Source: an uncultured bacterium
GTDB taxonomy: Bacteria > Chloroflexota > UBA5177 > JANWHV01
Length of the DNA: 64,000 nucleotides
Direction of reading: 5' to 3'
NCBI GenBank assembly: GCA_963827235.1
Contig: CAWHAE010000016.1
Location: forward strand, 1,024,001-1,088,000
A model generated the notes under the pieces. That model searched no databases. It was given only the letters and a program-made list of their open reading frames with translations, and was not told the DNA's origin. How positions within the stretch are numbered: the stretch's first letter is position 1; each line of letters starts with the position of its first letter. Made by a program: the position numbers and the translations under genes. Positions 36,837 through 59,002 of the stretch are shown in pieces.

Positions 36837-38906
36837 CTACAATGAAGCCGACAGCACCGCCGTACCGCTGATGAAGCGTACTAGGCCAGCCGGCACGTCG
36901 ATGACGTGCCGGCCCGGCGGCATGGTGCACTGCGTCTCATCAAGATCAGAGAGCGTGCCGCCCGCGTTGCCAATCGCCACGCCAAGTCTGGCCGCTCGCC
37001 GCGGCGACCATACCGTCACGACCGGCGCCTGGCCAGCCACGCCGTCAAATTGCAGCGCGGAGATCCCGTCTGGTGCAGAGAGAGTGCGGGCGAAGCGGCG
37101 GTTGCCCACGAGGCTGGCCAGCACCGTGAGCGCACGGTAGGCGGCTTTGGCACTGAAGTCGCGCCGCAGCAGCCCAAAGTTGGATTCTCGATCGTCCAGG
37201 GCCGGACCGTCATTTCGTGCATCGTACCAGAAGAATCGCTCGATACCGGCAGCTTGGCCGAGCAGGTAGGCGCGCACGAGCAAGCGTGCTTGCTGCACGT
37301 CGTCGATCACCGGATTGATTCCGTCGCTTGCCCAGCCTTGCTCGGTAATCCATATCCGTGGCGGCCGACCGGCGGTGCGCAGCAGACCCTGGAGCCGCCG
37401 CACAGTGTCCGCCAGGCCGGACTGCTCCGGCGACTTGCGACCCTCGTATGGATGAAACGAGAAGACGTCGAATACCGGCCGCCGGAACTGCAGGAAGCGC
37501 TCAATCCAGGCGAGGTCGACGAACGACGCTGGATTGCTCAGATCGCCAGGTCCGACCGTGCAGGGCGCCACGACGGTTACCGTGGGATCTATCTCCTTCA
37601 GCACGGTGTAGGTAGCGGAGAGCAATTCGACATACTGCTCCACCGTCCCGCGCCAAGAGGCAGGAAGATTCGGCTCGTTCCATATCTCCCAGGCAGCAAC
37701 GCGTCCCCGGTACCGGCGGGCAAACGTGCCGAGGAACGACGTGAATTCGCGTACGCCTTGTGTCGTATAGGGATGCGTCCAATCGGGCCACGTCGTTGGC
37801 ACGCCCAAGATGTTCAGCCCAGCTGAGATGGCCGCATCGATGGCCTGATCGTGCCGTCGCACACTGACACGACTGCAAAGCGCGCAGATCTGCTGCCAGT
37901 TGAAGTCCTCACGGATCCAACGCACACCGCAGCCGGCAAGGCTGGAAGCCAAGCGAGTCATATCGCGTGGGAGTACCCTGGTGGTCAGTCCAGCGTGGAC
38001 TCCCAGACTGTCAGGCCGAAGAGCAGGTGCCGGCAACGTGTCGCGCACAACGCTGACGTGCGTTGCAGCAACTGAGGCGAGTCCCGTGGCCTACGCCGAA
38101 AGCTGCACGATGGGTGGCAGATCGGTAGCGAGCAGGGCTACCTGCTGCAACTGACTGGCTGCCGGCACGCGCAGCCGAGTGCCGCGGCGATCAAGGATGC
38201 TGCCGTCGAGGCCCACCAGGCTCCACCCCAGCGCGAGGGTGCTGGGGACCGGCAGCAGGTTCTCCACACCGAGGGTGAGCTTGTCCGGCCGCAGTGCCGC
38301 GAGGCTCAGACGCAGCCCGTCGGCCGCCTGCAGTCTCGCGTGAACGCGTAAGCTTTGCAAGCGCACCCAGCCGGTGGGGCGACCGGGGCCGACCGCCATC
38401 GCAATTGACGTGACGGCTAGCGGCGCTCGTGCAACACGGTCTGTCCTCGCACCAAACACGTTCCAGGAAGGGCCGCCGATGTCGCGGAGCGATCGCTCTG
38501 CGCGGAGCACACCGCGGTGGTCGAGTGCTGCGATCGTGGTTTCGAAATACTGTCCGCCGCTATCCCGCAGGCGGATACTCAGGTGCTGGCCGCCACCGTC
38601 ACTATCCAGAAGAAGGACGATGGCATCGGGACTGCCGCGAAGAGTTTCCAGTCTGTTCTCGATGGCCAGGGCCTGCGCGCCCCGACGAAAGTCATAGGTC
38701 AGGGTGCCATCGCGCCAATCGGTGCCGCCTGCTACGTCGTCGTCGATCGACAGCAACCACCCTTCCGTCTCGTCAAAGCTGGCTATCCGATATTCAACGT
38801 CGTATGACAAAGTTGGCTGGACGGAAGGTAGCCGCAGCGCCATTGGAAGCGCCAGCCCTGCCAGAAGAAGGTCCCGTCGAGCCAAGAACGGCACGCGCCC
38901 GACCAT
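36837..38906 (-). pseudogene. Exported clan GH-A (GH39/GH5-like) glycoside hydrolase split by one in-frame TAG
   Basis: Tat-like ARRDLLLAG; TAG 38091-38093 with frame conserved on both sides; WIREDFNW, WEIWNEPN, FDVFSFHPY, IWITEQG, FGLL. Confidence 0.78.
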
Positions 38907-39266
38907 CAGCCGGGGCCCACCAGTGTGTCTACCACACCCATACGATCTAGCGTACGTCGCGCGGTTGTACGCGACCAGTGGCAGTGATCTGTGGATCCGT
39001 GTAATAAGCTGGCGGCAGTCAGGGCCCTGACCGTGACCGCAGGTCAGCACAGGCGGACGAATACCGTTGCCTCGTGCTGAGCGGCCAGACGCCAGCGCAA
39101 GAAGAGACACGCCAGCAATGCCAAGCGCGACCTCAGACGTCGGGCGCCCGTCGGCGCGTGTCGGTGCAGCAGCGCTCAAGCGCGCGGGATACTGGAGCCT
39201 GGTCGTACTGGCGTTCCTTCTGAGCTACCTGCTGCATGCCTGCACCGGCGCGCAGCGCCATGCCGG

Positions 39267-39287
39267 TGTAACCTCCGGTCGTATGTA
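39267..39287 (+). promoter_or_regulatory. Locus motif copy 1 (TGTAACC-N6-CGTATGTA)
   Basis: TGTAACC TCCGGT CGTATGTA, about 10 nt before the AAGGAGGAG RBS. Confidence 0.65.
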
Positions 39288-39311
39288 GTAGTGGTGCAAG
39301 GAGGAGCTATC

Positions 39312-39425
39312 GTGGAAGGCCAGTTTAGATTGTACGTCCTGCGCTACTGTCGCCGGAGCATCGATGGCAGCGGGCGAGACTGGCGCCCGGCCACACATCG
39401 ACTCGCCGGCTATAGCGGTGTGTAG
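39312..39425 (+). CDS. 37-aa ORF (or 5' part of a frameshifted gene extending to about 39600)
   Basis: AAGGAGGAG RBS, GTG start: MEGQFRLYVLRYCRRSIDGSGRDWRPATHRLAGYSGV*. Confidence 0.4.
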   Translation: MEGQFRLYVLRYCRRSIDGSGRDWRPATHRLAGYSGV

Positions 39426-39612
39426 GCGAATCATCGCTGTCGATGGTGATCTGGCAGTCACACGCCGAAGCCAGGCCAAGTTCGCTACCACGCAACTACT
39501 CCTCGACACAGTGTATGGCATGCTGTGCGCGCTGAAGGCGAAGTACCGCGGCCGGCAGTCGCGGCAGGTTCGGTGCAAAATCGCCGCAGCACAGGGATGA
39601 GGAGGCGGGCCC

Positions 39613-41124
39613 GTGAGTGACGTGCTCCTTGGACAATCATACTTTCTTCGCTTCGATGCCAAGCTGTGGGAAGCGATGCAGCCCTACCCACCACTCGGCT
39701 CACTCTACGCCGCGAGCTACCTGCGGAGCCTTGGCTACGAGATCGCCTTCTTCGACGCGATGCTGGCAGAATCGGAGGCCCCGTGGGGTCGGGCGCTCGA
39801 CCGCGTGAAACCGCGCTTCGCAGTGCTCTATGAGGACAACTTCAACTACCTATCCAAGATGTGTCTCTTGCGCATGCGCGAAGCCGCATTTCGGATGATT
39901 GAGACGGCCGGTGCGCGGGGAGCCACGGTCATCGTGGCCGGGTCGGATGCCAGTGACCACGCCGAGACGTACCTGGCGAAGGGTGCCCACTTTGTCGTTC
40001 GCGGTGAAGGCGAGCAGACGCTCGGAGAGCTGTTGCACTCTCTCACCGGCAGAACTGACGCACCGCTCGAGTCGATCCGCGGTCTCACGTACCCCGCGGG
40101 GTCGGATACCGATCGCTTTGTGCACACGCCCCCGCGCCCGGACATGAGTGAACTGGATGCCCTGCCGTTTCCGGCCTGGAATTTGGTCGACATGGCACGC
40201 TACCGGGAGATCTGGTTGAAGCGCCACGGCTTCTATTCAATGAACATGGTCACGACCCGCGGTTGCCCGTACCACTGTAACTGGTGCGCGAAGCCGATCT
40301 GGGGGCAGCGGTACAACAGCCGCAGCCCGGAAAACGTGGTGGAGGAGCTCCGCTGGCTGAAGACAACCTATGGTCCGGACCACATCGCGTTTGTCGATGA
40401 CATCATGGGGCTCACGCCCCGCTGGATTGATCGCTTTGCCGACTTGGTGGCGGAACATGACGCGCGGGTGCCATTCAAGAGCTTGCACCGCGCCGACCTC
40501 CTCTTGCGCGGCAACACCATCGCGGCGCTGCAGCGCGCGGGGGCCAAGACGGTCTGGCTTGGTGCCGAGTCGGGCTCTCAAAAGATCCTGGATGCGATGG
40601 ACAAAGGCACGACTGTCGCGCAGATCGCTACGGCGGCCCAACGGCTGCACGAGGCTGGTATCGAGGTCGGCTTCTTCCTCCAATTCGGCTACCCTGGGGA
40701 GACCCGGGCGGACATCGACAAGACGTTACGGATGGTCCGTGACTGCAAGCCGAACGACATCGGCATGTCGGTGTCCTATCCACTCCCGGGCACCAAGTTC
40801 TACGAGACGGTCAAGCAGGAGCTAGGAGTCAAACAGCACTGGGTGGATTCCAACGATCTGGACATGCTGTACCACGGACCGTACACTACAGACTTCTATC
40901 GACAGCTCCACGTCGTGCTGCACAAGGAGTTCCGGCTACGGCGCGGCTGGGATGACGTGTGCCGGGCGGTTCGTCAGCCTACGAAGTTAAGGAGGCGCCA
41001 TCTTCGCCGCCTCGCCGCCGCCGCCTATTATTCGGCAACGTTGCCACTGGCGCGCCGGAAGCTCAATCGCCTTGCTCGCCTCCCACACGAATCCCTGATA
41101 CCGCTGGTTCCAGGAGCGCGGTGA
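39613..41124 (+). CDS. B12-binding domain radical SAM protein
   Basis: GAGGAGG RBS; PYPPLGSLYAASYLR, GEGE, TRGCPYHCNWC (CX3CX2C), GAESGSQKILD. Confidence 0.94.
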   Translation: MSDVLLGQSYFLRFDAKLWEAMQPYPPLGSLYAASYLRSLGYEIAFFDAMLAESEAPWGRALDRVKPRFAVLYEDNFNYLSKMCLLRMREAAFRMIETAGARGATVIVAGSDASDHAETYLAKGAHFVVRGEGEQTLGELLHSLTGRTDAPLESIRGLTYPAGSDTDRFVHTPPRPDMSELDALPFPAWNLVDMARYREIWLKRHGFYSMNMVTTRGCPYHCNWCAKPIWGQRYNSRSPENVVEELRWLKTTYGPDHIAFVDDIMGLTPRWIDRFADLVAEHDARVPFKSLHRADLLLRGNTIAALQRAGAKTVWLGAESGSQKILDAMDKGTTVAQIATAAQRLHEAGIEVGFFLQFGYPGETRADIDKTLRMVRDCKPNDIGMSVSYPLPGTKFYETVKQELGVKQHWVDSNDLDMLYHGPYTTDFYRQLHVVLHKEFRLRRGWDDVCRAVRQPTKLRRRHLRRLAAAAYYSATLPLARRKLNRLARLPHESLIPLVPGAR

Positions 41125-41460
41125 GAGAGCACGATCGCGCCATACAAAACACCGCCGAACACCTGGGGAGCAGCATCTGCTCCAGTGGAGGGCAAGGGCA
41201 GGGCCTCACGCCCGCTCGACCAAGAGCCAGCCGCGGGCCATCCTCGCAGATGGAACAGTCTCAATGCCGGCCTGAATCCGGGTTTGGACGGCTGAACCAG
41301 CGGCGAGCAAGACGCTTTGGTCGCGGTTGGCGCGGCGGCTGGTTCCCCACGCGCGTCAAATCATGAATCCACCAATGTATTCAGAGCGTAAAGGATTTCT
41401 GAGCGGGTCTCTGTCGGCTTCCGCAGTTGAGCTGGCAGGCGAGAGTGAGGAGTGGTCGGC

Positions 41461-41667
41461 ATGGTAGCGTGGATTCGACTCATCGGCGGTCTTCTGTTGG
41501 TCTTCGTCGGTGCGGTGTGGATAGGCCAGGGCGTCGGACTGATCAAGGGCTCCGGCATGTCGGGTCATGGCCAGTATGCAGTTGCCGGAATTGTCGTTGC
41601 ACTTTGTGGACTCTGGCTGCTCTGGAGTCCCGTGCTGGCACGGACCCGTGCAATGCGTGCGCACTAG
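41461..41667 (+). CDS. Small two-TM membrane protein
   Basis: GAGGAG RBS; GAVWIGQGVGLIKGSGMSG between two hydrophobic helices. Confidence 0.7.
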   Translation: MVAWIRLIGGLLLVFVGAVWIGQGVGLIKGSGMSGHGQYAVAGIVVALCGLWLLWSPVLARTRAMRAH

Positions 41668-41884
41668 CCCGCTATCACCTGATCCGCCGATCCCGAGCCT
41701 GGAACAAAGGGTGGTCTGCCGACCGGGTCGCGAGCGGTCAGCCAGGGTGTCTGAGCATCGCGCATCGACCTGAAGCGCAGCGTACGGCTACCGCTAACGG
41801 TACGGACCGAGGTGTGCCGCGGTCCAGGCGGTCAAGTCGCTCCTGAAAGGCGTTCATCACCCGCGCGCTATGCCCGTCGACGTG

Positions 41885-43075
41885 TCACCGGCGGTCGGAT
41901 TGAACACCTCGAGTTTGGTTGCCGGCGGCCAGCCCCTCATATGTCCGAAGGAAACGACGTGCCACGACCGGAAGCGACAAGTGCGCGACCACCTCCTGAC
42001 GCCTTCGCCGAGCGTGGTCGCCGTACAGGGGCTCCCACCGAAGTCGCCTCTCCAGCGCGTCGGCCAGCACGTCGGGCGAGCGTGAGGTCACGCATATGCC
42101 GACCGTGCGGTCGCTCAGTAGCTCACGGGCAATGCCGACCGGCGTGGACACGACAGGCACGCCGCAGGCAAGGGCCTCGACCACCGCCAGACATTGCGCC
42201 TCATGCCATGAGGCGATCGCCGCGACGTGGGCAGAGCCCAGGAGCTTCGCCACCTCTGCTTGCGATCGCACACCCACCAGATCGACGTGGCATTGCAGAC
42301 CACGCCGTGCTACGGCCGCGCGGGCTTCCGGTCCATCGGTGCGCTCACCCACCAGCTGCAGATCCGCGGAGACACCGCGCCGTACGAGCACACGCAAGCT
42401 ATCCAGAAGCAGGTCGTGCCCTTTCACCGGGGACCACGCAGCGACGCACACTATGCGTCCGCGATTACGCTCCGCGGGCTCGTCTTTCGCCGGAAATATC
42501 TGGGGGTCGTACCCGAGCGGTAGCATCTCGATGCGCTCGGTAAGCCAGGGATAACGAAAGAGCAGGCGCTCACGCAGATCCATGGATCCGACGCCGATGG
42601 TGGAGGAAGCGTGCAGGCTCAACGCAACTTGCATCTTTTCCAGGATGCGAAGACGACTGCCGTATCCGGCAGGGCGGGCCGCGGCAAGCTCGCCGCCGCA
42701 GCAACTCAACAGCACCGGCAGGCGCAACATCCGTCCTGCGGCAACGGCAAGCATGCCCGACTCGGTAGCCCAGAATCCGTGAATTACGGCGAACGGCGTT
42801 GCGCTGTGCACGGAGGTAATCGTCGCCAGCACACGGGCCCACCGGCGCGCACTTGCTACTCGATGCGAGACACCGGAATGCGACGAGAGTGCTTCTCCAA
42901 AGCTCTGTACCCGGGTGCCGCAGCTGCGGTAGCGCGCCGACCGGAGCGGATAGCGCACGGCGAAGACATGCAGATCGTGCTCACTGCCAATCGCACGGGC
43001 CAGACTGTTGAGCGCGGGGATGCCGGGCTCGCCGTCGCCACCCTGGAAGCCGGGAACGACCCAGGCGACACGCAT
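41885..43075 (-). CDS. Glycosyltransferase family 4
   Basis: MRVAWVVPG, IHGFW, VKGHDLLL, SWHEAQCLAVVEALACGVPVVST. Confidence 0.9.
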   Translation of the reverse strand: MRVAWVVPGFQGGDGEPGIPALNSLARAIGSEHDLHVFAVRYPLRSARYRSCGTRVQSFGEALSSHSGVSHRVASARRWARVLATITSVHSATPFAVIHGFWATESGMLAVAAGRMLRLPVLLSCCGGELAAARPAGYGSRLRILEKMQVALSLHASSTIGVGSMDLRERLLFRYPWLTERIEMLPLGYDPQIFPAKDEPAERNRGRIVCVAAWSPVKGHDLLLDSLRVLVRRGVSADLQLVGERTDGPEARAAVARRGLQCHVDLVGVRSQAEVAKLLGSAHVAAIASWHEAQCLAVVEALACGVPVVSTPVGIARELLSDRTVGICVTSRSPDVLADALERRLRWEPLYGDHARRRRQEVVAHLSLPVVARRFLRTYEGLAAGNQTRGVQSDRR

Positions 43076-43080
43076 CGATC

Positions 43081-44667
43081 TCACGCTTGCCAAACCGTAT
43101 AGGCGCCCACCTGCGCCACGGAACGCAGGTGTGCATGCGCCATCAGCCAGTCGAAAGCGGCGTCCGGCGGCAGTCCGGTCCATTGTGTGCCGAGGTTTTG
43201 CTCGTCGGCGACGACGACCAGCGGCCGCGTGCGCACGAGTCGACGCAAATCTCCGGGTGTCAGGGCAGAGAGATCGACCAGCGTCCAGCCATGTCCGCGC
43301 AGATCGCCGTAGTGGTACAGCGTGAGAGTCAGGCTGAAGGTCACCAATGTAGCACCGGGCGGGGCGTGTCCGGCGAGCCAGTGAACCGCGCTGAGATCGC
43401 CGGTCTTTCCGTCGGCCAGCGCCGCCAGCGGCCTGCGTATATCCACGGCCAAGATGCCGAGTCCGAGAATCGCCAGCACGAGCGCACCAGGCAGCGCCGG
43501 GCGCCATGCGGACAACAGGTAGCGGACCGTGGCGGCCAGTCCGACCGCCTCCAGTATGGCAAGCGGCGGTGCGTAGATCAGGGCAAACCGTGCACTCTCG
43601 AACGGCACGCCGGAGAGGTACAGCGCGGGCACGAGCCACCATGCCAGCAGCAAGAGCAGTAACGGGCCGGCGTTGGGTACGTACCCATGTGATCGCCGGG
43701 TCATCCGGATGCCTCCGGCCAGCGCCAGGATAGCTGCCGGCACGAAGGGAGCGAGCAGAAATGGCAGCGACTGCGGCGCCACCAGCGGCCGAAGCAGGTA
43801 AAACTCGCCCACGCTCATCGGGTAGTGCTGCAGGCCGTCCGCGGTGAAGAAGCGGGTTTGCCAGTAGTGCTGGATGCTCCAAGAGGTGAGCCACTGCTGG
43901 TGCACTACGGGATTGCTATAGCTCACTGTGGATAGCAGCAGCGGGACTGCTGCCACGGCAACGCCCAGCAGCGCGGCCACCGCCGGGCGAACGCCGGACC
44001 GGCCACGCTGTGCCAACCAGTACAGCGCGAACGCCACGCCCAACGGCGCATATTCAAGGCGCGTGGAGACGGCCAGGGCGAAGCAAGTGCCGGCCAGGAA
44101 GCTGATGCCCAGCCTGTGCTGCTGGGGCAATTCCACCCAGGGAGTTGTCCAGAGCCATGCCGCGCACATGGCCCAGAACAGGGCCGGTGCGTCGGCCATG
44201 ATCGTGCCGCTGGCCTGGACCTCCAGTCCGGCCAGGCCTATCAGGAGCGCCGCCAACGTGGCGATCACCGTCGACCACGTACCTTTGAATAGAGATTGGG
44301 CTACGCGAAACGCCAGCAGGTGTGTCAACGCCACCACTCCCAGGCCTGCCGCCACGCTTACAGCCAGAGCGGCATATGCGGACGAGGTGCCGGCTAGCGC
44401 GGTCGCCGCCGCCACAAGGACAGGCTCGCCCAAGGGCCAATAGAGGTGCAGCGGGCTGGGCAGCCACGGCCACGGGTAGCTAAGGCTATGGGCGCGCCAA
44501 AGCTCCACGCCGTGATAGTAGTAGGCGTAGGAATCCTGCCCGTACAGGCCGTCGAAATGCAGGCTCCAGAGTGCCCAGAGCCGGACGAGCAGCGCGAGTG
44601 CGATCACCGCCGCCAGGCACACCCGGTTCGCGGCAGGCCGCGATGCCAGATACTCGTCTTGCTTCAA
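43081..44667 (-). CDS. GT-C (ArnT/PMT/GT39-like) polytopic membrane glycosyltransferase
   Basis: First TM followed by DGLYGQDSYAY, WPLG, MADAP, STR.EY; many TM helices. Confidence 0.7.
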   Translation of the reverse strand: MKQDEYLASRPAANRVCLAAVIALALLVRLWALWSLHFDGLYGQDSYAYYYHGVELWRAHSLSYPWPWLPSPLHLYWPLGEPVLVAAATALAGTSSAYAALAVSVAAGLGVVALTHLLAFRVAQSLFKGTWSTVIATLAALLIGLAGLEVQASGTIMADAPALFWAMCAAWLWTTPWVELPQQHRLGISFLAGTCFALAVSTRLEYAPLGVAFALYWLAQRGRSGVRPAVAALLGVAVAAVPLLLSTVSYSNPVVHQQWLTSWSIQHYWQTRFFTADGLQHYPMSVGEFYLLRPLVAPQSLPFLLAPFVPAAILALAGGIRMTRRSHGYVPNAGPLLLLLLAWWLVPALYLSGVPFESARFALIYAPPLAILEAVGLAATVRYLLSAWRPALPGALVLAILGLGILAVDIRRPLAALADGKTGDLSAVHWLAGHAPPGATLVTFSLTLTLYHYGDLRGHGWTLVDLSALTPGDLRRLVRTRPLVVVADEQNLGTQWTGLPPDAAFDWLMAHAHLRSVAQVGAYTVWQA

Positions 44668-44766
44668 CGTGGATCCCCGATCGCTCGTGGGCTGTTCGCG
44701 GGCAGCGTGCGACGGCTCCTAACCGCTCCTCTATCTCGACGGGACACTTTCGGAACCACCTTCAAG

Positions 44767-44786
44767 TACGTACGCGGTCGGTTACA
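44767..44786 (-). promoter_or_regulatory. Locus motif copy 2
   Basis: Reverse strand TGTAACC GACCG CGTACGTA, about 100 nt upstream of 44667. Confidence 0.7.
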
Positions 44787-45107
44787 GAACTGCCGACCAC
44801 CAGGCCCGAAGCAGGGGCGGCAATCGGCACGATTCTCCTGCTGCGGGCGAAGCCATCTGTCGGCATGCATAGGTGGCCGGGATGGATCGCAGCCGTGGCC
44901 GCCGTTTCGGCGATCGGAGCGCTCCTGATCACACCGCGCACTCGCTGACCGCAGCAGACTTCGATCCGACGAGCCCTCTGGAGCAACAATCCGGTGGCGC
45001 CCAAGTGACCGAGCTGGGAGAAGCGTGGCAGCTCTTTGTCGCGCACTCACTCCTGGGCGTTGGGGCGAGCTGCTACCTGCCCGCTCTCTCACCAACGTTG
45101 CCGGCAG

Positions 45108-47120
45108 CTATCGCACGCGGAGGCGCGACTCTGGTTCGACTCGCCTGTCTGGGGGAGAGGGTACCGCGATCGCACCTCGAGAGACCATGCCGGATCGCCG
45201 TCTCTCGTCGATCGTCAGCTCGGCGGCCGATGTCGTTGCGAGGCCGCAAAGCAGCCAGAATGCGAGGCTCACGGCATGGGAATCGAGAAAATCATCGACC
45301 AGTCCGTGCCCAAGGAAAGCGGCGAACGCAGCGACCAGTCCAACATGCCAGGCGCTCGGTGCGACATCCATTCGAAACCAGCCCGCGGCGATCAGTGGCC
45401 ACCACACGGTGCCGAGGAATGCAAAGTAGATCCCGGCTCCGAGCACGCCCAGGTCCGCAAGTATTTCCAGGTACAGCTCGTTGGCCAGTATCCGCGTGTC
45501 CCAGTTTGCCAGCGGCGGTCTCATGTACATCCCGTACTGCAGGCGATAGTTGTCCGGGCCGACCCCCAGAAGCGGATGCGCCCGGATCATGGACCATGCT
45601 GCTTTCCAAAGATTCAGGCGACTGGGCTCGCTGATGACGCGTGGCAATGCGGCTGGGCCTGCCGCCGAGGTGATCTGCGTGCGCTCAGGTGCCGCATTGC
45701 ACGACGCCTTGGCGGCTGAGCTTCCGAGCACCAAGACCGGATTGCCGACGTAGGAGGCGCTCTTGAGGCTGAACCACGTCACGTTCTCCTGAACCATGTC
45801 CCAGACCAGCGCGTAGCGCCCGGGCTGGGGCGGAGCCTGAATCCGCGCTTGAACGCGCACGGTGCTGCCTGGCTGCACCGGGTCTGGCAAGGACGTACGT
45901 GGATTTTCGAACTGGGCAACCTTACCCGTGGCGTAGAGCCAGTGGTAGCCGAGGTTGTAGACGTTCTTGCCGGACGCCTGCCAGACGAACGGACTCTTGT
46001 TGACAATCACCACCGGAAGTGCGAGCCGCTGGCAAACCTGAAGAGCAGACGGCAGGCGACTGCTATAGGTCGCTAGATACCACTGTTGATCGCTTGGACT
46101 CGTCAGGCGGAGCAGCGCGAGTGGCGTCGCGATGAGCGTGATGCAGCAGGCACTCGTGAACAGCACGACGAGGGCGGTGAGCATGCGCACCTGCAGCGGT
46201 CTGGTCGAGAAACGCTCGCGAGAGCGGTACGATAGCGCCGCGGCGACCGCTGCTGACGAAGCGACGCCGAGCAAGGCACCGCGACTGAAGGTAAGCAGGA
46301 TGCCCTCAAAAAGCAGCACGGCGGCCACAAGCCAGCCAAGCACACTTGCCCACTGTGGTCGCTGCCTTCCCGCGGCAATGACGAGCCCGGCAATTGCAAG
46401 GGGAAGAGCGAGCTCAAAATACATTGCGGCGATGTTGGCATACTCGAACGTGCCGCTGAGCCTGAGGAATGATCCTGCCAGTGTTGGCTTCGCCTTGAAG
46501 CCGCTCAGGCTTCCCGCGTACCCCGCTCCCAGCGCGAACTCAAGAATACCGATACCTGCCGCTACAGTGGCGCCGGCCACGATCGCTTGCGGGATGAGGC
46601 TGATCTTGCGACGTGCTGATGCTAGCCACAGTGGCATGACCAACCAGAGCAAAGCACCGACGACGCTGTCGAGCGTCCATTTCAGGCTGTTGTCGCGCCC
46701 GGCCGGAGTCGACGCTCCGATGCTAGAGAGCAGCGAGCAGATGAGCAGGGCTGCGAGCAACCCGAGTGGGAGGCGTACCGCCCTGAATGAGCGCCGGATC
46801 GCGATCCTCCGCGCGGGTTCCAGTCCGAACCGGATCAGCGTCGCGACGCCGATCCCCGTGACCACATACAGCACGAGCTTGAGGTTGGTAAGCGTCACGA
46901 GGCGCGTATGGATAAGAGGGCGTTGCGTCAGCTCGAATGGCAGCGCGGCCGCCAGCACGACAAGACCAAGGCAGCCATAGCGCTCCAGAGGGGCCGTAGC
47001 CACGTACTTTCGCCGCACTTCTTGCCTCGCGATCGACTCGGTGCGAGCGGTGCCAGCGCTGGCCGCCGCAGATCGATGTCGCGCCTCCCGAGGCCTGGCC
47101 ACTCGAGAGCCGCGATTCAC
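45108..47120 (-). CDS. O-antigen ligase-like membrane protein with inserted extracytoplasmic Ig-like domain
   Basis: RLSGTFEYANIAA, LTFSRGA, LGYHW...PGRYALVWDMVQE..TWF insert, SRLNLW...HPLLGVG.DNY. Confidence 0.82.
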   Translation of the reverse strand: MNRGSRVARPREARHRSAAASAGTARTESIARQEVRRKYVATAPLERYGCLGLVVLAAALPFELTQRPLIHTRLVTLTNLKLVLYVVTGIGVATLIRFGLEPARRIAIRRSFRAVRLPLGLLAALLICSLLSSIGASTPAGRDNSLKWTLDSVVGALLWLVMPLWLASARRKISLIPQAIVAGATVAAGIGILEFALGAGYAGSLSGFKAKPTLAGSFLRLSGTFEYANIAAMYFELALPLAIAGLVIAAGRQRPQWASVLGWLVAAVLLFEGILLTFSRGALLGVASSAAVAAALSYRSRERFSTRPLQVRMLTALVVLFTSACCITLIATPLALLRLTSPSDQQWYLATYSSRLPSALQVCQRLALPVVIVNKSPFVWQASGKNVYNLGYHWLYATGKVAQFENPRTSLPDPVQPGSTVRVQARIQAPPQPGRYALVWDMVQENVTWFSLKSASYVGNPVLVLGSSAAKASCNAAPERTQITSAAGPAALPRVISEPSRLNLWKAAWSMIRAHPLLGVGPDNYRLQYGMYMRPPLANWDTRILANELYLEILADLGVLGAGIYFAFLGTVWWPLIAAGWFRMDVAPSAWHVGLVAAFAAFLGHGLVDDFLDSHAVSLAFWLLCGLATTSAAELTIDERRRSGMVSRGAIAVPSPPDRRVEPESRLRVR

Positions 47121-47210
47121 CGTCACTCCTTATCAGTCACCTCTGAGACCCCGGCGGCCGCGTTTTGCTCTGGAGAGTACAGCTCTGCGAAGTGCAGTCC
47201 CGCCACCTGA

Positions 47211-47230
47211 TAAATACGTGGGCGGTTACA
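47211..47230 (-). promoter_or_regulatory. Locus motif copy 3
   Basis: Reverse strand TGTAACC GCCCA CGTATTTA, about 90 nt upstream of 47120. Confidence 0.7.
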
Positions 47231-47452
47231 GAGCGGGCCCACGGCAGCATTGTCACGCGAAGAGCTACTCGCCGCATGTGACTGGACCTTGTGGGTGATG
47301 GCGGCAGAACCCGCTTCTCACCTATACTCCCGGTGAGTCGTGGGCCCGCCGGCCATCCGGGTGTTTGCCACGGATGACACTCACGGTCGTTGCTCGAGCG
47401 AGCAACAACCCGGCGTTGGAAGACTGCTTCACCCCAGCATGACGCAGTCGAT

Positions 47453-47530
47453 CGAAAAAGGTAACCCCGTCGCGAGGCGGGCACACAGAGCCAGGGGACT
47501 CGGCGTGCCGAGTTATCCCAGCCGCCGAAA
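47453..47530 (+). ncRNA. c-di-GMP-I (GEMM)-like riboswitch, variant or degenerate
   Basis: AAAAGGTAAC-CCCGTC-GCGA-GGCGGG-CACACAGAGCC-AGGGG-ACTCGGC-GT-GCCGAGT-TATCCCAGCCGCCGAA: GNRA-capped 6-bp stem plus second stem, ending 15 nt before the GH gene. Confidence 0.55.
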
Positions 47531-47545
47531 CGAGGGTTCCGCGCC

Positions 47546-49165
47546 GTGAGGCCTGTTCAGCAGGCTCAGTCTACTTGGAGTCAGATCCGCGCGGTGGCCG
47601 TTATCATGCTCGTGCTGCTGGCATGCGCCACCTCTCTTGTTCGTTATCCTCCGGCTGCCCAGGGCGCGCGAGGCTACCGTGCCGGTTCTCCGGCCGCCAA
47701 GAATGAGTTCCAGGCTGTCGCACAGCGTGGCGACCGCGAGATGGCGCTCGGCACCGGCGGCAGCTCCGCGCTACGCGCCGTTGCCACCAGATCTATGCTG
47801 GCCGGCATCAAGATGCTCAACTATTATCCGGAGCAATACAACTGGTCCAACATGTGGACGCACTGGTCACCGTCGACCATAGACAGCGACTTTGCACGCA
47901 TCGCGGCACTTCACGCCAACGCCGTGCGCGTCATCCTGCAGGCCTGGACTATCGGCTACCCGAGCCCACAACCGATCATGCTCAGCCGGCTTGCCCAGAT
48001 GATCGATCTCGCGGCCAAGCATGGACTGCGCGTGCAGCTCACGCTGTTCGATTGGTGGGACCGTTACGCCGATCTTTTCGGCAGCAGGGAGTGGCTGTCC
48101 GACGTGCTGGCCCCGTACGCAACCGACCCCCGCATCGCCTTTGTCGAACTGCAAAACGAAGTCGACCCAGCGGATCCGGCATTCGTGGGCTGGGCGCGGC
48201 AGATGATCCCGTACGTACATACCGTCTTCCCTGCCATTCCGGTCACGATCTCCGTCTACGGCGTGGCCACGCTTCAACGCTTGTTGGCTGCACTGCAATC
48301 CTCGCCGCTGGATTTCGCCGACTTGCACTACTACGGCGCGGCCTGGTGTGCTGGCACGACGTTGCGTCAGGCTGCAGTAACCGCTGCGCCTCTGCCCATG
48401 TTCGTTGGCGAGACGGGATTCTCCACGTCGCCAGACAGGCCGGAGGTGGCCGGATTGCCCGATACACCACCGGACCTGGAAGCGTTTCAAGACTACTACT
48501 TTCGATCGGTAGCCTACGCTGCCCGTTCCCTTGGACTACCGGAGCCGGCCGTCTGGACTCTGCACGATTTTGCGCCGGGGTCCCTGACGTGGACTCCCGC
48601 GAGCAGCCCTGAATACGGCTACGGCATCGTCCGCACAGACGGGTCCACGAAGCCTGTGGCATCGTCGGTGGCCTCGGCGTATGGTGCCGGCGTGATCGAC
48701 GCGTCCTTCGACAACGGCTTCGAGCTCTGTACCGCCGGCGCCGAGCCGCCGCTGTGGAGATACGCCAATTCCACGACCCAGGAGTTTTCCTGCGACCTCA
48801 CCGTGGCTCATACAGGCAAGGCCTCACTGCGCTTTTCGCCTTCAACCGGCGCGGGCGTGAATGCTCCCTACCTGTACGTCTGTCCGGTCTGGTGGCCCGG
48901 AGCCCCAGGCCAGACCTACGTGGTGACCGCCTGGGCCATGAGGGTGAGTGCCGCAGGAAGGCCGGAATTGGCCCTGCAATGGTTCGATGCCGCTGGAATG
49001 CACCTCGGCCCGCGTGCATCGGCAACGCTGGCGTCCGGTACGGCAACGTGGTCACAGCTGCGCGTCCAGACCACGGCTCCAGCTGGTGCCGCCTACGCAC
49101 AGATCTCTCTCCGGTCAACGGGTCCTGGGGCAACCTGGTTTGACGATGTAGCGTTCGAGTCGTGA
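47546..49165 (+). CDS. Secreted clan GH-A (GH5/GH2-like) glycoside hydrolase with C-terminal CBM4/9-like domain
   Basis: N-terminal hydrophobic segment; LNYYP, NAVRV, ELQNE, DLHYY, VGETG; DNGFE...AHTGKAS...WFDDV. Confidence 0.82.
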   Translation: MRPVQQAQSTWSQIRAVAVIMLVLLACATSLVRYPPAAQGARGYRAGSPAAKNEFQAVAQRGDREMALGTGGSSALRAVATRSMLAGIKMLNYYPEQYNWSNMWTHWSPSTIDSDFARIAALHANAVRVILQAWTIGYPSPQPIMLSRLAQMIDLAAKHGLRVQLTLFDWWDRYADLFGSREWLSDVLAPYATDPRIAFVELQNEVDPADPAFVGWARQMIPYVHTVFPAIPVTISVYGVATLQRLLAALQSSPLDFADLHYYGAAWCAGTTLRQAAVTAAPLPMFVGETGFSTSPDRPEVAGLPDTPPDLEAFQDYYFRSVAYAARSLGLPEPAVWTLHDFAPGSLTWTPASSPEYGYGIVRTDGSTKPVASSVASAYGAGVIDASFDNGFELCTAGAEPPLWRYANSTTQEFSCDLTVAHTGKASLRFSPSTGAGVNAPYLYVCPVWWPGAPGQTYVVTAWAMRVSAAGRPELALQWFDAAGMHLGPRASATLASGTATWSQLRVQTTAPAGAAYAQISLRSTGPGATWFDDVAFES

Positions 49166-49223
49166 CGAGGCCGCTTTCTCTCGTCATGGCATGGGCGGCA
49201 ACTCATGCTTAGTCTTGAGCCGA

Positions 49224-50852
49224 TCACGTGCCGCTTGCGCCGCGGGTTGGGTCTCGCAGCGGCGTGGCACGCGGCGCCGCATGGCAGCTGTCCGCAGGCA
49301 GGCCGCGGGGCACTGTTGTGAAGACTGCCAGGGAGATGATCCAGAGCGTTGCAACCGGTTGATTCACCCAGATGTAGAAGTCGAAGAGTCCGGCCACGGC
49401 GACGACAACCAGGCTGGCACCGGCCAGCGCGCGCCAGGGCTCCAGGCCCGTGTGCCCATCATCCGCGCCGCTAGATAGCTCGCTTGGCGGGATGTGCAGC
49501 AATATGCGACGTGGCACGGCCTGCCGGCCCGTGCGGCCTCTCACTGGGGCGACAGAGTTGCGTTTGCGCTCCTGGAGGCCGAGATCCAGCAAGGGGGCCA
49601 GCATCAGCGACAGCCAGCTGAGACTGCCAAGCGGTCCCAGCTCGGTTTGGGCGAGCAGGTACGTGTCGTGCACCGGAAGGAGGCCGAGCTTAGCGGGCGC
49701 TACCAAGTGCAGGAAGCGTTCTTCCGCAAGCACGAAGTTATTGCCGCCGACGCCGGTGAGCGGTCGCAGAGCAATGACCTGCATGGACCGATCTGCCAAG
49801 TCGAGGCGCTGCTGAATGGAAACCCGCTCCAGGATATTGCTGGCCGGTTGCAGACGCACACCCACGGCGTCCCTGTTCACGAAGAGCAGCAGGATGAGCA
49901 CAAGGCAGCTGCTCAGGACGATCGCCTGCCCTCGCCGCGTGTACCTTGCACGGTCGTTGCGCTCGCGATTGCAGGATCTCACAGCTACGAGATACCCGGT
50001 AGCGACAAGCAAACCCAGCCATGCGGAGCGCGAGTAGCTCACGACGATGGCCGCAAGCATCAAGGCCAGACACAGCAGCAGGAATGCCTCAGAGAGCGCA
50101 TGAGCGGCGCGGCGCTGCCCCTGGCGGGTACGGCGGTCGTTTGTGTCGGCGTGCAGGAAGAGACCGATGACCAACGGGAGAGCGGCGGCCGTCAGGCCAC
50201 CGAGCACATTTGGATGTGGTAGCACGCCATAGGCTCGCAAGAGTGCCCTGCCATGCACCTGCACGACGGCGGTTCCCAGAGTCGTACGAAGCATGCGCGG
50301 CTCCCCCAGCCAGGTCAAGCCGAGCGGATTCTGATGCACTGCCTGTGCAACAGCCAGGAGGCTGTTCAGCGCAAGCCCCGGCGCGAGCACCCATGCGACA
50401 GTCCCCGCTGTGATCAACCCCGCGACGAGCGTACGCCGAAGGCAAATGTAGAGCAGGGCCAGCCCGGCCGAGCGCACAGCAAAGTGCACTGCCGCGACCT
50501 GGCTCGTCGCTCCGAAGACGGCAAGGACGCTCGCCAGGACGAAGAGCAGCAAGGCCCCGGATGTCCAGTGTGCCACGCCGTGGACATGATCTCGGCGGCA
50601 GAGCACGGTCGTAGCCCAGCCGAGGAGCATACCCACGAACAGCAGGTCGGCGAGGTCAAAGCCCGTGTTGAGGAGTCCGTTTCGTGGCGCGGCGATGTCG
50701 AGACGCGAGAATGGCCAGTGAGGTCCCCACGGTAACGTGACCAGCAGCAGCTTACAGCAGACGTGCGCAAGCTGCGGACCGAGCCTGGCGGCTTGCGCGC
50801 TAATGCGCGTGGCGATGCCGGTACCGGCTGCTACGGACGATCGTGTGGTCAC
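49224..50852 (-). CDS. O-antigen ligase family protein
   Basis: AGGAG RBS; RAYGVLPHPNVLGG, SYSRSAW, PLTGVGGNNF, PVHDTYLL..ELG. Confidence 0.88.
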   Translation of the reverse strand: MTTRSSVAAGTGIATRISAQAARLGPQLAHVCCKLLLVTLPWGPHWPFSRLDIAAPRNGLLNTGFDLADLLFVGMLLGWATTVLCRRDHVHGVAHWTSGALLLFVLASVLAVFGATSQVAAVHFAVRSAGLALLYICLRRTLVAGLITAGTVAWVLAPGLALNSLLAVAQAVHQNPLGLTWLGEPRMLRTTLGTAVVQVHGRALLRAYGVLPHPNVLGGLTAAALPLVIGLFLHADTNDRRTRQGQRRAAHALSEAFLLLCLALMLAAIVVSYSRSAWLGLLVATGYLVAVRSCNRERNDRARYTRRGQAIVLSSCLVLILLLFVNRDAVGVRLQPASNILERVSIQQRLDLADRSMQVIALRPLTGVGGNNFVLAEERFLHLVAPAKLGLLPVHDTYLLAQTELGPLGSLSWLSLMLAPLLDLGLQERKRNSVAPVRGRTGRQAVPRRILLHIPPSELSSGADDGHTGLEPWRALAGASLVVVAVAGLFDFYIWVNQPVATLWIISLAVFTTVPRGLPADSCHAAPRATPLRDPTRGASGT

Positions 50853-50894
50853 TGATGGCTCCTGCCCCCACGCCCCCGGCACGTCTCTTGCATG

Positions 50895-50914
50895 TATGTA
50901 CGGGGACGATTACA
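50895..50914 (-). promoter_or_regulatory. Locus motif copy 4
   Basis: Reverse strand TGTAATC GTCCC CGTACATA. Confidence 0.65.
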
Positions 50915-50942
50915 CCGCGTTTCGGCCGGCGCGCTGCCATGT

Positions 50943-50962
50943 CGTAACCTAGCGCGTATGTA
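50943..50962 (+). promoter_or_regulatory. Locus motif copy 5 (divergent from copy 4)
   Basis: CGTAACC TAGCG CGTATGTA. Confidence 0.68.
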
Positions 50963-51078
50963 CACGCAGCAGGATCTACTGGCGCACGCCGGATGCTGGT
51001 CTCGGCGCAGGGCCTCGCAGCGGCGCCGTCCAGCAAGCAGAAGCACTGAAGGCAGGACAACCGGTGGAAGGGAAGCCC

Positions 51079-52344
51079 ATGGTGCTGATCGGGATCGACG
51101 TATCATCGGCGCTTGCCGGCCCGCGCAGTGGTGTCGGCAACTACACGATGAATCTGGTGCGCCAGCTGCAGCAGCAGGAAGAGGTCGGAAACGCGTGTTT
51201 CATGTACTTCTCCAACCGGGATGGCCAGCTGTTTGTCGAGCGGTCAGGCGCACTTGGGGCGGCAACGACCTACCCATATGACCGGCTTCGCTGGCACCTC
51301 GTGTGGATGACGGCAGGTCTACCGCGCAGTGTCGCCCGTACACGACCGGATATGCTCCATTTTCCTAATCATCTTGCACCAATTACCGGTCTGGGCACCA
51401 CGCCGTACGTTCTCACCGTTCACGACATGTCGGTCTATCGCTGCCCGCAGTACCACACCCGGAAGACGGTGGCCGTACATCGGGCGGTCATGCCTCTAGC
51501 CGCACGCCATGCACGGGCCATCGTGACCGTGAGTGACACGGCACGCCAGGACATACTGCAGTACTTGAACGTGCCGCCCGAGCGGGTGCGTGTGGTGCAT
51601 GAGGGCGTCGGCCCACAGTTCAGGCCGCTAGCCACGCCGCGTGAGCCGCATCCCGACGAACTGCGGCGGCGCTATGCACTGCCGGAGCTGTACATCCTGA
51701 CGGTAAGTACCATCGAGCCGCGCAAGAATCATGGTCGTCTTCTGGAGGCGTTCCGCTGGCTCACGCAGCAGGAGCACATTCCGCATCACTTGCTTATCGC
51801 CGGTGCCCACGGCTGGAAGGACACCGGACTTCGTCAGTGGGTCCGGCGTCATGGGCTCGCCGATCGCGTGCGATTCCTCGGCTACGTGCCCGAGTGCGAT
51901 CTGCCGGGTCTGTATCGCGCGGCCGACATCTTCGCTTATCCATCGCTGTACGAGGGTTTCGGCTTACCGGTTCTGGAGGCAATGGCATCCGGCATACCCT
52001 GCGTGATCTCTACCGATCCTGCTCTCTGCGAAGTTGCCGGCAAGAGCAACGTCGTTGCTGTCAATCCATACTCGGCGTCCGACATCGCTGCCGGGCTCTT
52101 CGCGGTTCTGCACAACCCTGATCTGGCTGCTGAGCTGCGGCACCGGGGTCTCGTCCGTGCCGGCACGTTCACGTGGGGAGCCTGCGCTGAGCAGACCTAT
52201 CAACTGTACTGTGACGTCACCGACGCCGCAGCGTCGCCGGTGGCCACGCGTGACAAGCGGTCCGGCACGAGACAACCGTGGCTGACGTACCAGGGCGGCC
52301 TCAACCCGCGGAGCAGACTTCGGTCGTCCCGCTACCCTACGTAG
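51079..52344 (+). CDS. Glycosyltransferase family 4
   Basis: SGVGNYT, LTVHD, TIEPRKN, PSLYEGFGLPVLEAMASG. Confidence 0.94.
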   Translation: MVLIGIDVSSALAGPRSGVGNYTMNLVRQLQQQEEVGNACFMYFSNRDGQLFVERSGALGAATTYPYDRLRWHLVWMTAGLPRSVARTRPDMLHFPNHLAPITGLGTTPYVLTVHDMSVYRCPQYHTRKTVAVHRAVMPLAARHARAIVTVSDTARQDILQYLNVPPERVRVVHEGVGPQFRPLATPREPHPDELRRRYALPELYILTVSTIEPRKNHGRLLEAFRWLTQQEHIPHHLLIAGAHGWKDTGLRQWVRRHGLADRVRFLGYVPECDLPGLYRAADIFAYPSLYEGFGLPVLEAMASGIPCVISTDPALCEVAGKSNVVAVNPYSASDIAAGLFAVLHNPDLAAELRHRGLVRAGTFTWGACAEQTYQLYCDVTDAAASPVATRDKRSGTRQPWLTYQGGLNPRSRLRSSRYPT

Positions 52345-52597
52345 CCGGCGACTGTCGCTCTCGACAGTGCCGCGGCGGGCGAGCATGACGCCACGTTTTC
52401 GATGCGACTGGATGGCGCCGAGCTCGCCGCTAAGTGAACACGATTTCCTTGTGAATGCCCTGCAGATACTCATGCGACGCGGCTGGTGGGTGCGACTGGA
52501 TATCGCCGGTCGGCGAAAATCCCTACCCGCGAAGGTCAATCGGAGGTGGCTCGCTCGACTCTTCGCCAGGACTGCCGCCGTACGTTGCGCCCAGACC

Positions 52598-52617
52598 TGT
52601 AACCCGGCTCGTATGAC
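52598..52617 (+). promoter_or_regulatory. Locus motif copy 6
   Basis: TGTAACC CGGCT CGTATGAC, upstream of the 52775 operon. Confidence 0.65.
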
Positions 52618-52774
52618 TTACCGAATAGCTGCCGAGCAAGACTCTGAGCTTATGGCAAGTCCGTTAGGGCAGTATCCGCGAGTCATCGTGCCGATGCAGA
52701 GAGACACAAGACCGCACACCGTTACCGACCGGGCTAGATGGCGTTTCAGTGCCTAGATTGCAGGGTTGGCACCG

Positions 52775-53734
52775 ATGAGAGACATGGCATGGGCACCTGC
52801 GCAGAGCCGTCGCGCGCGCGCGCTGCAAACGGCCATCCGCCGCACCCTGGCATACGCGGACGTATTCGACTACCCACTGACATCTACCGAGCTGCATCGC
52901 TACCTGCACGACGAGTGTGCGACGCCGCAGGAAGTGCGCTCGCTGCTTGACGCAGGTATACCCGGTGTGGAAGAGCACAGCGGCTTCCACGTGTTGGCCG
53001 GCAGGCTCTGGATCGTGGCGGAGCGGCGACGGCGTGATGCCTTCAGCCGACCACTGCTGGCGCATCTTGGCCTATACGCGAAGATTCTCCGCTACCTTCC
53101 CTTCGTGCGAATGGCCGGACTGACCGGATCGCTCGCCATGCAGAATACCGACGGTCGGGGCGATATCGACTTGCTCGTGATCGCCGTGCCGGGGCGCGTC
53201 TGGCTTGCCCGCGCAGCGGTCATCGGGCTGGTACGACTGGCACGAGTGACCGGAGATGTGCTCTGCCCGAACTATATCCTCGCCGAAAGTTCGTTGGCGC
53301 TGGATGACGCGTCAATCTATGGCGCTCACGAGCTGGCGCAGCTCGTACCATTCTTTGGACGCGAAGTCTACTCGCGGCTGTGGTCCAGCAATCCGCAGGT
53401 CGCCGTTCTCCTGCCCAATGCCCGATCCTGGCCTATGAAGGAGGAACGAGCGATCCCCCTGGCTAGTGCACTGCAGCGAGGCATCGAGCATCTGCTTGGA
53501 GGTGCGCTCGGAGACAGGCTGGAGAGCTGGGAGCGGCGGCGAAAGACGGATCGACTGCGAGGGCAGGAGCGCACATGCTCTACGGAGATCGTGCTGTCGG
53601 CCGACCAATGCAAGGGTCATTTCGACCGTCACCGCGCGCGCGTGCTCCAAGCATACGATGAGCGGCTCGTCCGCGTGGAAGATGCCCAGGAGCGAGCCCA
53701 GCGCTCACGGACAGCCGACTGGAGTTACGCATGA
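52775..53734 (+). CDS. Pol-beta-like nucleotidyltransferase-fold protein of unknown function
   Basis: TLAYADVFDYPLT; LPFVRM..LTGSLAM.N...GDIDLLVI..PGRVWLAR; LCPNY. Confidence 0.72.
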   Translation: MRDMAWAPAQSRRARALQTAIRRTLAYADVFDYPLTSTELHRYLHDECATPQEVRSLLDAGIPGVEEHSGFHVLAGRLWIVAERRRRDAFSRPLLAHLGLYAKILRYLPFVRMAGLTGSLAMQNTDGRGDIDLLVIAVPGRVWLARAAVIGLVRLARVTGDVLCPNYILAESSLALDDASIYGAHELAQLVPFFGREVYSRLWSSNPQVAVLLPNARSWPMKEERAIPLASALQRGIEHLLGGALGDRLESWERRRKTDRLRGQERTCSTEIVLSADQCKGHFDRHRARVLQAYDERLVRVEDAQERAQRSRTADWSYA

Positions 53735-54066
53735 CGATGACAAGGCCGGATATCGTGTTCACCAACGCGCATGACATCAGTGCCGATCACCACGAGCAGA
53801 TCGCCATCCGCCCCTGCCCTGCCGTTGACCGCCTCTATACCGCCGCCTATCCACGCCGGCACACCTACGAAGTAGCGTCTACTGACTCCGTGTTTGAGAC
53901 GAATGAGAAGGATGTCGCCGCGAGCATACAGCGCCTCGAACCGCGTTCGTTCCGGCTACTACACGCTGGCTGCGACCCTGGCGGAACGCGAGAAGCGCAA
54001 GCGGGCCTAACAGCTGTCCGGCCCTGGCTTCTCCCACACCGGTGCGGGACTGGGGCAGGCCGATGA
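53731..54066 (+). pseudogene. Degenerate N-terminal remnant of a B12-binding radical SAM gene
   Basis: DIVFTNAH...IRPCPAVDRLYTAAYPRRHTYEVASTDS aligns by eye with DVLLGQSY...MQPYPPLGSLYAASYLRSLGYEIAFFDA of 39613; no CX3CX2C. Confidence 0.6.
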
Positions 54067-57452: not shown

Positions 57453-57455
57453 GCC

Positions 57456-58280: not shown

Positions 58281-58329
58281 GCCGTCTGGTTGTGGATGGG
58301 GTTAGCCACCACGAAATGGTGATCGGCAT

Positions 58330-58825
58330 TGGTTCGGCGGTGCTGTAGGCTGCATCGTAAACGGGAATCGCGTCCTCGCACCCGTACGGCCAAGGTACTG
58401 GCTCCGACCAGCTTGCCGCCGGATCTCGCTGCGACGCACCATGCCGACAGTTGCGCAGTCCTTGCGGTGACCGCGCGGTATGGTATGTAGTGTGCGAGAT
58501 ACTCCCGCAGGACACGAAGCATATGGGTTCTACTCAGGATAAGCAACTGGTCGAGGCACTCGCGGCGCACAATGTCGAGCATCCTTTCACAGCAGGCATT
58601 TTCCGTTCGGGCGCGGTAGACCGTACGCATCTCGTGCATGCCGGTGGCCGCGGCAAGGGCAGAGAAGGCCGGCCTAGACGTGCTGTCGGCGTCGTGAATG
58701 AGTTGCTTGGGGTGCCGATCAAACGCCCTTCCCTCGTGCAGCTGTTGGGTGACCAGGCATCGGTCGGGTGGTGAGTGAAGCCGGCATGCACGATCGTGCG
58801 CGTGCCCAGTTCCATGGAAAGACAT
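58330..58825 (-). mobile_element. Integrase-core (rve) transposase remnant
   Basis: ELGTR.IVH.G.T.HPTDAW, LIHD.DS, NACCER...VRRECLD...LRVLREYLAHY; frameshifted. Confidence 0.75.
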
Positions 58826-58974: not shown

Positions 58975-59002
58975 TGCACTTTCCGTGCCCACGGACGTAT
59001 CA
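58975..59002 (+). promoter_or_regulatory. Possible ECF-type promoter for the sigma gene
   Basis: TGCACT-N15-CGTATC about 60 nt upstream of 59060. Confidence 0.4.

Follow-up and report, generated by a model that had tools for sequence, protein, structure and literature searches.

The sigma factors of extracytoplasmic function (ECF) make up the largest alternative sigma family, and both the prediction of their promoters and the engineering of these into orthogonal switches start from the premise that the −35 and −10 boxes lie 16–17 base pairs (bp) apart. Self-regulation is typical of these factors. Among the described promoters, those of the SigW/SigX type in Bacillus subtilis read TGAAAC-N16-CGTA and TGTAAC-N17-CGAC, and that of Caulobacter SigF, an ECF factor linked to metal stress, reads GTAACC-N16-CGAA. 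The present analysis concerns a bipartite motif built of such halves, which occurs in six copies within a glycan/radical-SAM locus of an uncultured Chloroflexota bacterium. The whole stretch of DNA analysed, 64,000 nucleotides long (G000:C16:1024001-1088000), is hereafter called the window, and the assembly to which it belongs, G000, comprises 8.0 megabases (Mb) in 21 contigs. Judging from sequence comparison, the six copies are probably the promoters of one regulon, read by an ECF sigma factor of the type encoded on contig C18 of the same genome and not by the sigma factor encoded in the window.

In its half-sites, TGTAAC and CGTA(T), the motif is all but identical with the −35 and −10 boxes of the SigW/SigX type, and its spacer is about one helical turn shorter. 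The upstream box GTAACC is common to the Caulobacter SigF promoter, which differs in its 16 bp spacer, in phylum and in the type of anti-sigma. In Streptomyces, the promoter sequences are CGTAAC-N16-CGTTGA for BldN (PMC2375139) and CGTAAC-N16-CGATGA for ShbA, with the −10 bases at −12 to −7 (PMC12019637); ShbA drives the transcription of its own gene, too. The Chloroflexota motif shares with both the upstream hexamer, (C/T)GTAAC, and a downstream box that starts with CG, and the sigma factor linked to it is nearest to the BldN family model. Measured against the pattern CGTAAC-N16-CG(T/A)TGA, the hexamer matches, while the spacer (5–6 bp in place of 16 bp) and the second box (CGTAT) do not, so that the halves stand 10–11 bp closer. 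As in other ECF promoters, there is an AAC-containing upstream box, a CGT-containing downstream box and a copy of the motif in front of a sigma operon; the 16–17 bp spacer is what is missing. The element thus resembles, at the level of sequence, an ECF promoter in its half-sites, its apparent self-regulation and its small stress-type regulon, and departs from it in the defining spacer.

The six copies are listed below, with the rank that each obtained in a scan of the whole genome with a matrix derived from other genomes; ORF stands for open reading frame.

39267-39287, + strand: copy 1, TGTAACC-TCCGGT-CGTATGTA with a 6-base spacer; rank 2; faces a short ORF (39312-39425) with a strong ribosome-binding site and the B12-binding radical SAM gene 39613-41124
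44767-44786, − strand: copy 2, TGTAACC-N5-CGTACGTA; rank 7; faces the GT39/PMT-like gene 44667-43081, then a GT4 gene
47211-47230, − strand: copy 3, TGTAACC-N5-CGTATTTA; rank 1; faces a gene for a Wzy_C/O-antigen-ligase-like membrane protein, 47126-45108
50895-50914, − strand: copy 4, TGTAATC-N5-CGTACATA; rank 9; faces a gene for a Wzy_C-like protein, 50882-49224
50943-50962, + strand: copy 5, CGTAACC-N5-CGTATGTA; rank 3; faces the GT4 gene 51064-52344
52598-52617, + strand: copy 6, TGTAACC-N5-CGTATGAC; rank 6; faces a run of co-oriented ORFs, 52766-58280

All six lie between long ORFs, each facing a co-oriented ORF whose first listed start codon is 12–325 bases downstream, and the motifs of the back-to-back copies 4 and 5 are 28 bases apart. 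The exact pattern TGTAACCNNNNNCGTAYNTA is matched twice in the window (44767-, 47211-; 0.00 expected), and with up to two mismatches five times, the additional matches being 50895-, 50943+ and 52598+ (0.15 expected; none of 100 shuffles reached five). When the window was scanned with a matrix, the six copies scored 22.7–27.7 and the next best site 15.7. In the 8.0 Mb of the genome, three of the four matches to TGTAACC-N5-CGTA and 5 of the 17 matches to GTAAYC-N5-CGTA fall within these 13 kilobases (kb). The two boxes are not reverse complements of one another, thus the symmetry of a dimeric-repressor operator (e.g., of the GntR/FadR type) is lacking. A preliminary description of this DNA had reported six oriented, non-palindromic copies upstream of genes, including a divergent back-to-back pair, with no good copy elsewhere in the window, and in all these respects it holds. 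Its formula, TGTAACC-N5-CGTAYNTA, stands for five copies and had to be widened to a spacer of 5 or 6, since copy 1 (39267+) has N6.

The preliminary description had also proposed that the motif be sought genome-wide and in orthologous loci. For the former, a scoring matrix was derived from 29 sites in other genomes only and the whole 8 Mb of G000 was scanned. The six window copies came out at ranks 1, 2, 3, 6, 7 and 9, which places them among the best sites of the genome, above background. Of the three remaining sites, rank 4 precedes a Lipoprotein_15 (PF03640) gene, rank 5 belongs to the sigma operon on contig C18, and rank 8 precedes an ORF for a secreted or membrane protein of 129 amino acids, function unknown. 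All top nine sites are intergenic and co-oriented with the downstream ORF, and 12 of the next 15 hits are inside ORFs.

Within the 29 training sites the spacer from GTAACC to CGTA is 5 bp in 7 and 6 bp in 22, and the first base of the hexamer is C in 8, T in 17 and A in 4. Both there and in a set of 39 aligned sites, GTAAC is invariant and (C/G)GTA nearly so, which gives the same consensus for the window and for sigma operons, (T/C)GTAACC-N5/6-(C/G)GTA(T/C). Flanks are not conserved in the window sites or in the 39 aligned sites; the two boxes are all that is kept. No second conserved block was found in the 39 sites at 16–17 bp after GTAACC or anywhere else, and no conserved −35 box upstream of the motif. 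The housekeeping pattern TTGACA-N16-18-TATAAT is not matched either, the last position of TAYNNN being T in only 6 of 29 sites.

Which protein, then, reads the motif? One copy, TGTAACTCCATCCGTATATA at C18:220871, lies 58 bases upstream of an ECF sigma ORF in the window's own genome (G000:C18:220949-221481). The gene that follows encodes a protein with a helical domain at its N-terminus, a membrane segment that contains SRR, and a Rieske [2Fe-2S] domain. The orthologous sigma/Rieske operons of the same-genus genomes G003 and G004 carry TGTAACCGGCGCCGTAT upstream, and a paralogous pair on contig C9, the sigma gene of which is intact, carries TGTAACG-N6-TGTATGTG. Relatives of the Rieske anti-sigma occur in 160 of 401 sampled Chloroflexota genomes (E<=1e-10; the tally includes five genomes flagged as unpublished, none of whose sequence was used), and in all 30 loci fetched the sigma gene stands directly upstream of the Rieske gene. 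The pattern GTAAC[CTG]-N5/6-[CGT]GTA was present within 350 bases upstream of sigma in 22 of these 30 operons in the forward direction and in 1 of 30 in reverse; 2000 shuffles gave 0.087 such loci on average and never more than 2. The position of the motif before its own sigma operon indicates self-regulation of the predicted sigma/anti-sigma pair.

The intact sigma of G001 (178 amino acids) is an ordinary two-domain ECF factor. Among NCBIfam models that of the BldN family fits it best, but at 103 bits it stays below the cut-off of 206 and thus does not count as a BldN orthologue. The PDB chains that match it best, 6dxo_A and 9isn_F, are sigmas of the BldN and ShbA type, and unlike in the BldN system the anti-sigma carries a Rieske domain. 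Across 21 members of the motif-linked family the helix of region 4 shows strong conservation. Binding between sigma and residues 1-82 of the Rieske protein is predicted: the score is 0.84, against 0.01 for the best of 3 controls, the runs share at least 87% of their contacts, and the partner has a pLDDT of at least 79. In calibration, 58 of the 80 solved complexes attained this mark, and 2 of the 110 mismatched pairs did so. Since solved sigma/anti-sigma complexes exist, the result may be due to resemblance to them. A literature search found no description of a Rieske-domain anti-sigma or of a short-spacer ECF promoter. The main text of the ECF re-classification paper (PMC7826278) contains none of the terms 'spacer', 'Rieske', 'Chloroflex' and 'GTAAC', and its supplements with per-group promoter predictions may already list this group.

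Some further features of these operons were seen. The Rieske anti-sigma family (L205-L234) has a conserved N-terminal helical domain, a twin-arginine-like SRR membrane segment and the ligand motifs CTHMGC...CPCHG. The motif before the C18 sigma operon is flanked by the arms of a perfect inverted repeat of 8 bp (GTCCGCAC ... GTGCGGAC; L204 993-1031), which was not seen at other sites. Three loci of one family (L222, L233, L234) have a second block, AGCC(C)ATGG, about 17 bases past the second box and before the sigma operon; in L222 the frame that its ATG opens is closed after six codons, so a start codon alone does not account for the block.

As regards orthologous loci, 80 on genome contigs and 80 on metagenome contigs, each encoding a relative of the GT39-like protein, were scanned with a matrix of the six window sites. 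The best hits came from a few close orthologous loci (50–52% protein identity). L014 has one site, upstream of the GT39-like orthologue, and the metagenomic L095 has four, one of them directly upstream of that orthologue. The Wzy-like orthologue of L095 is preceded by TGTAATC-N5-CGTATAGA, i.e., by the same TGTAATC variant as window copy 4. L015 has two to three sites, L094 (62% identity) a weak hit only, and in L096, a GT39-like locus, no site was found. In G011, from the same class and another family, four sites within 10 kb precede the genes for Lipoprotein_15, a Ferritin_2-like protein and cupredoxin-DUF7482 as well as the sigma operon. Lipoprotein_15 orthologues lie downstream of the motif in G000, G003, G004, G011 and G035, and cupredoxin-DUF7482 orthologues in G003, G004, G011 and L095; in G001 a cupredoxin gene is directly upstream of the sigma operon. 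Glycan genes are targets only in the window's genus and in L095, and the glycan/radical-SAM locus appears to have been added to the regulon in this genus. Exact-pattern counts in G001–G004 and in five distant genomes are mostly at control level, and G011 alone stands out (6 compared with 2 for the control); the signal in relatives is in the placement of sites and not in their total counts.

The preliminary description had suggested that the motif ties the locus into one regulon and that its halves are ECF-like. Both suggestions gain from these comparisons: a matrix from other genomes recovers the six sites, orthologous genes in relatives carry the motif, and the motif stands before an ECF sigma/anti-sigma operon both here and in most of the Chloroflexota operons fetched, with a sigma nearest to BldN/ShbA.

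Two further observations were made in the relatives. In L176 (G003:C20) and L179 (G004:C63), at position 1501, TGTAACCGGCTCCGTAC is found inside the spacer of a canonical TTGACA-N17-TACACT promoter kept in both genomes, which means that some matches to the pattern belong to unrelated sigma-70 promoters. G004 has two nearly identical motif-bearing regions upstream of the GT39-like gene (L183 on contig C102; L195 on contig C231), which represent either a duplication or strain redundancy in the metagenome-assembled genome.

How such a promoter could work may be outlined as follows. The Rieske anti-sigma, a membrane protein with a predicted outward-facing [2Fe-2S] domain, would release the sigma factor, region 2 of which would read (C/G)GTA(T/C) as the −10 box, at about −12 to −8. 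GTAAC(C), the hexamer that BldN/ShbA relatives use as the −35 box, would lie at about −23 to −18, only 5–6 bp upstream, and transcription would start about 5 bases past the 8-mer (8-mer at about −12 to −5). This would require either that region 4 comes nearer to region 2, by one helical turn, than it does in any solved holoenzyme, or that the upstream box is recognised by different means. This geometry (−12 to −5 and −23 to −19) comes from the alignment of CGTAT with the CGATGA of ShbA; direct reading of the motif by sigma, the start position and the reach of region 4 to the upstream box are all inferred. More tentatively, a phylum-wide ECF family, kept in check by a Rieske iron-sulfur anti-sigma, may direct the polymerase to GTAACC/CGTAT promoters with boxes 5–6 bp apart, a −24/−12-like layout that is not known for the sigma-70 family.

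The short geometry fits the lack of any block at 16–17 bp, the variation of the spacer by one base and the closeness of ribosome-binding-like runs. GGAGG/AAGGAGG-like runs lie 7–17 bases past the second GTA at 39267 in the window, at 7911 and 11455 in L095, at 5722 and 15593 in G011, and in L220 and L234; start codons and ribosome-binding sites are predictions throughout. Under the ordinary 16–17 bp geometry these runs would fall upstream of the transcription start.

Several points weigh against the proposal that a C18-type sigma reads these promoters. In ECF holoenzymes region 4 rests on the beta flap, about 16–17 bp upstream of the −10 box, and one sigma reading both boxes across a 5–6 bp gap needs an undescribed arrangement. 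The 30 operon loci are mutually related (proteins 35–69% identical, surrounding DNA non-aligning), and the counts overstate their independence. Eight of the 30 sigma operons are without the motif, including those of the two closest relatives, G001 and G002, and TGTAAYC-N5/6-CGTAY has no match anywhere in G001. Exact-pattern counts in G003 and G004 are no higher than those of the control pattern, which implies that the regulon there is small. Finally, a gap of one base sets the C18 sigma gene apart from its counterparts in G001, G002 and G003 (L204 = G000:C18:219871-223370, at ~1381-1384) and splits regions 2 and 4 into two frames. It is either an assembly error or a dead gene; should the split be real, the active factor may be the paralogue on C9, which is intact.

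A different reader of the same sites deserves the most attention among the alternatives, although it is unlikely. The 20-mer could be the site of an unlinked activator that touches two successive major grooves, by two helix-turn-helix units or tandem winged helices, overlaps a weak core promoter and controls the sigma operon along with other genes. With about 12 bp from centre to centre, the two boxes share one helix face, an arrangement that fits one protein better than it fits regions 2 and 4 of sigma, and the site is asymmetric with a fixed orientation, as are the sites of MarA-type activators. Nevertheless, no conserved regulator gene lies beside the motif in the 30 loci except for the sigma and anti-sigma, the spacer varies between 5 and 6 in the manner of promoter spacers, and both boxes match known ECF half-sites. 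The core promoter is wanting as well: a −10 box of the sigma-70 type is absent, T not being conserved at the end of the hexamer, and a scan of 38800-58500 for promoters of that type gave one site, inside a gene (3.1 expected), and none in the intergenic regions.

It is less probable still that the sites are ordinary ECF promoters, in which GTAACC is the −35 box, a degenerate −10 box lies 16–17 bp downstream and CGTAT is a conserved element of the spacer. No new polymerase geometry would be needed, and the spacer sequence reportedly tunes ECF promoters. ECF sigmas normally need a conserved −10 box, however, and the information content at its expected position is at most 0.5 bits in 23 sites and at most 0.4 bits in 39 sites, with CGTA nearly invariant; moreover, the ribosome-binding-like runs described above would be left out of the transcripts.

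The preliminary description had named the ECF sigma of the window, near 59060, as a candidate reader. That this sigma (58886-59626) reads the motif, or that the GntR regulator (61207-61947) binds it, is very improbable. Both genes are near the locus, and the best NCBIfam match of the window sigma is the BldN family model (103 bits). Nonetheless, the window sigma lacks an upstream motif, is about 30% identical to the motif-linked sigma and is separated from the locus by an IS3-like remnant, and in many genomes the motif adjoins the other sigma family, hence the likelier reader is the product of G000:C18:220949-221481. As to GntR, its sites are usually inverted repeats, and the motif is not one. 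It is hardly credible that the copies are what remains of a repeat or of a mobile element, or that they cluster by chance, and play no regulatory part, since beyond the clustering itself nothing speaks for it, and the non-conserved flanks, the constant orientation to genes, the shuffle controls and the retention of the motif before orthologous genes in genomes with proteins 35–60% identical all speak against it.

Sigma-54 promoters (−24 GG / −12 GC) were considered separately. The motif resembles them in the distance between its conserved dinucleotides (GT-N10-GT compared with GG-N10-GC), in its nearness to the putative start and in its strict orientation, and is unlike them in the identity of its conserved bases and in that the linked factor belongs to the sigma-70 family. 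This candidate was rejected: PF04552 (Sigma54_DBD) has no match in the 95.9%-complete genome, control genomes being matched as expected, and the conserved dinucleotides are GT and GT. The four PF00158 matches in the genome are weak (23–32 bits) and short.

If the regulon is read by a C18-type sigma as proposed, boxes 5–6 bp apart would reveal either a new seating of a sigma-70-type factor on DNA or a hidden partner protein, and two-block motif searches with a 15–20 bp gap would miss such regulons. For the poorly known Chloroflexota it offers a testable regulon, in which a Rieske sensor (of redox or metal?) would preside over secreted Lipoprotein_15 and cupredoxin-DUF7482. In the window's genus the regulon would also cover a cell-surface glycan locus with B12-radical SAM methylation enzymes.

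The genes of this locus are the following.

39613-41124, + strand: B12-binding radical SAM enzyme (Pfam Radical_SAM 3.8e-19, B12-binding 9.2e-8; NCBIfam matches all below cut-offs)
43081-44667, − strand: GT39/PMT-like GT-C glycosyltransferase, downstream of copy 2
41885-43894 (listed ORF), − strand: GT4 glycosyltransferase behind the GT39-like gene, GT domain at residues 298-621
45108-47126, − strand: Wzy_C-like membrane protein, downstream of copy 3
49224-50882, − strand: Wzy_C-like membrane protein, downstream of copy 4
51064-52344, + strand: GT4 glycosyltransferase, downstream of copy 5
52766-58280, + strand: copy 6 run of six co-oriented ORFs, two of unknown function, three methyltransferases and a second B12-radical SAM enzyme
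52766-53734 and 53731-54066, + strand: the two ORFs of unknown function of this run
54042-55995, + strand: methyltransferases of this run
55914-57452, + strand: B12-radical SAM enzyme of this run
57456-58280, + strand: last methyltransferase of this run

The relatives of the GT39-like protein are found in Chloroflexota metagenome-assembled genomes. The GT4 gene behind it probably starts near 43080 and not at the listed ORF end, 43894, because the GT domain occupies only residues 298-621. The gene at 49224-50882 likely starts with a GTG, preceded by GGAG, about 45 bases past motif copy 4. Past copy 1 (39298-39425, + strand), an AAGGAGG ribosome-binding site 10 bases from the motif is followed by GTG and an ORF of 37 codons (39312-39425), and the B12-radical SAM gene starts about 190 bases further on. 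This ORF may encode a leader peptide or a small substrate peptide, or may have arisen by chance.

One gene of the locus, an ORF for 539 amino acids (47546-49165) with a weak GH42-like match, is the sole one without the sigma motif in front. Its orthologue in G002 (locus L002) is in a different neighbourhood, with no motif there. Sixteen bases upstream of this ORF ends a candidate riboswitch (47451-47530, + strand), which matches the Rfam c-di-GMP-I-GGC aptamer over the whole model (positions 1-80 of 80) and, with 47.6 bits, stays below the gathering score of 59. Lastly, the glycan locus is separated from the window's pair of ECF sigma and putative anti-sigma genes (58886-60606) by an ORF for 207 amino acids (58202-58825, − strand) with a weak match to an IS3 transposase (E 2.8e-4).

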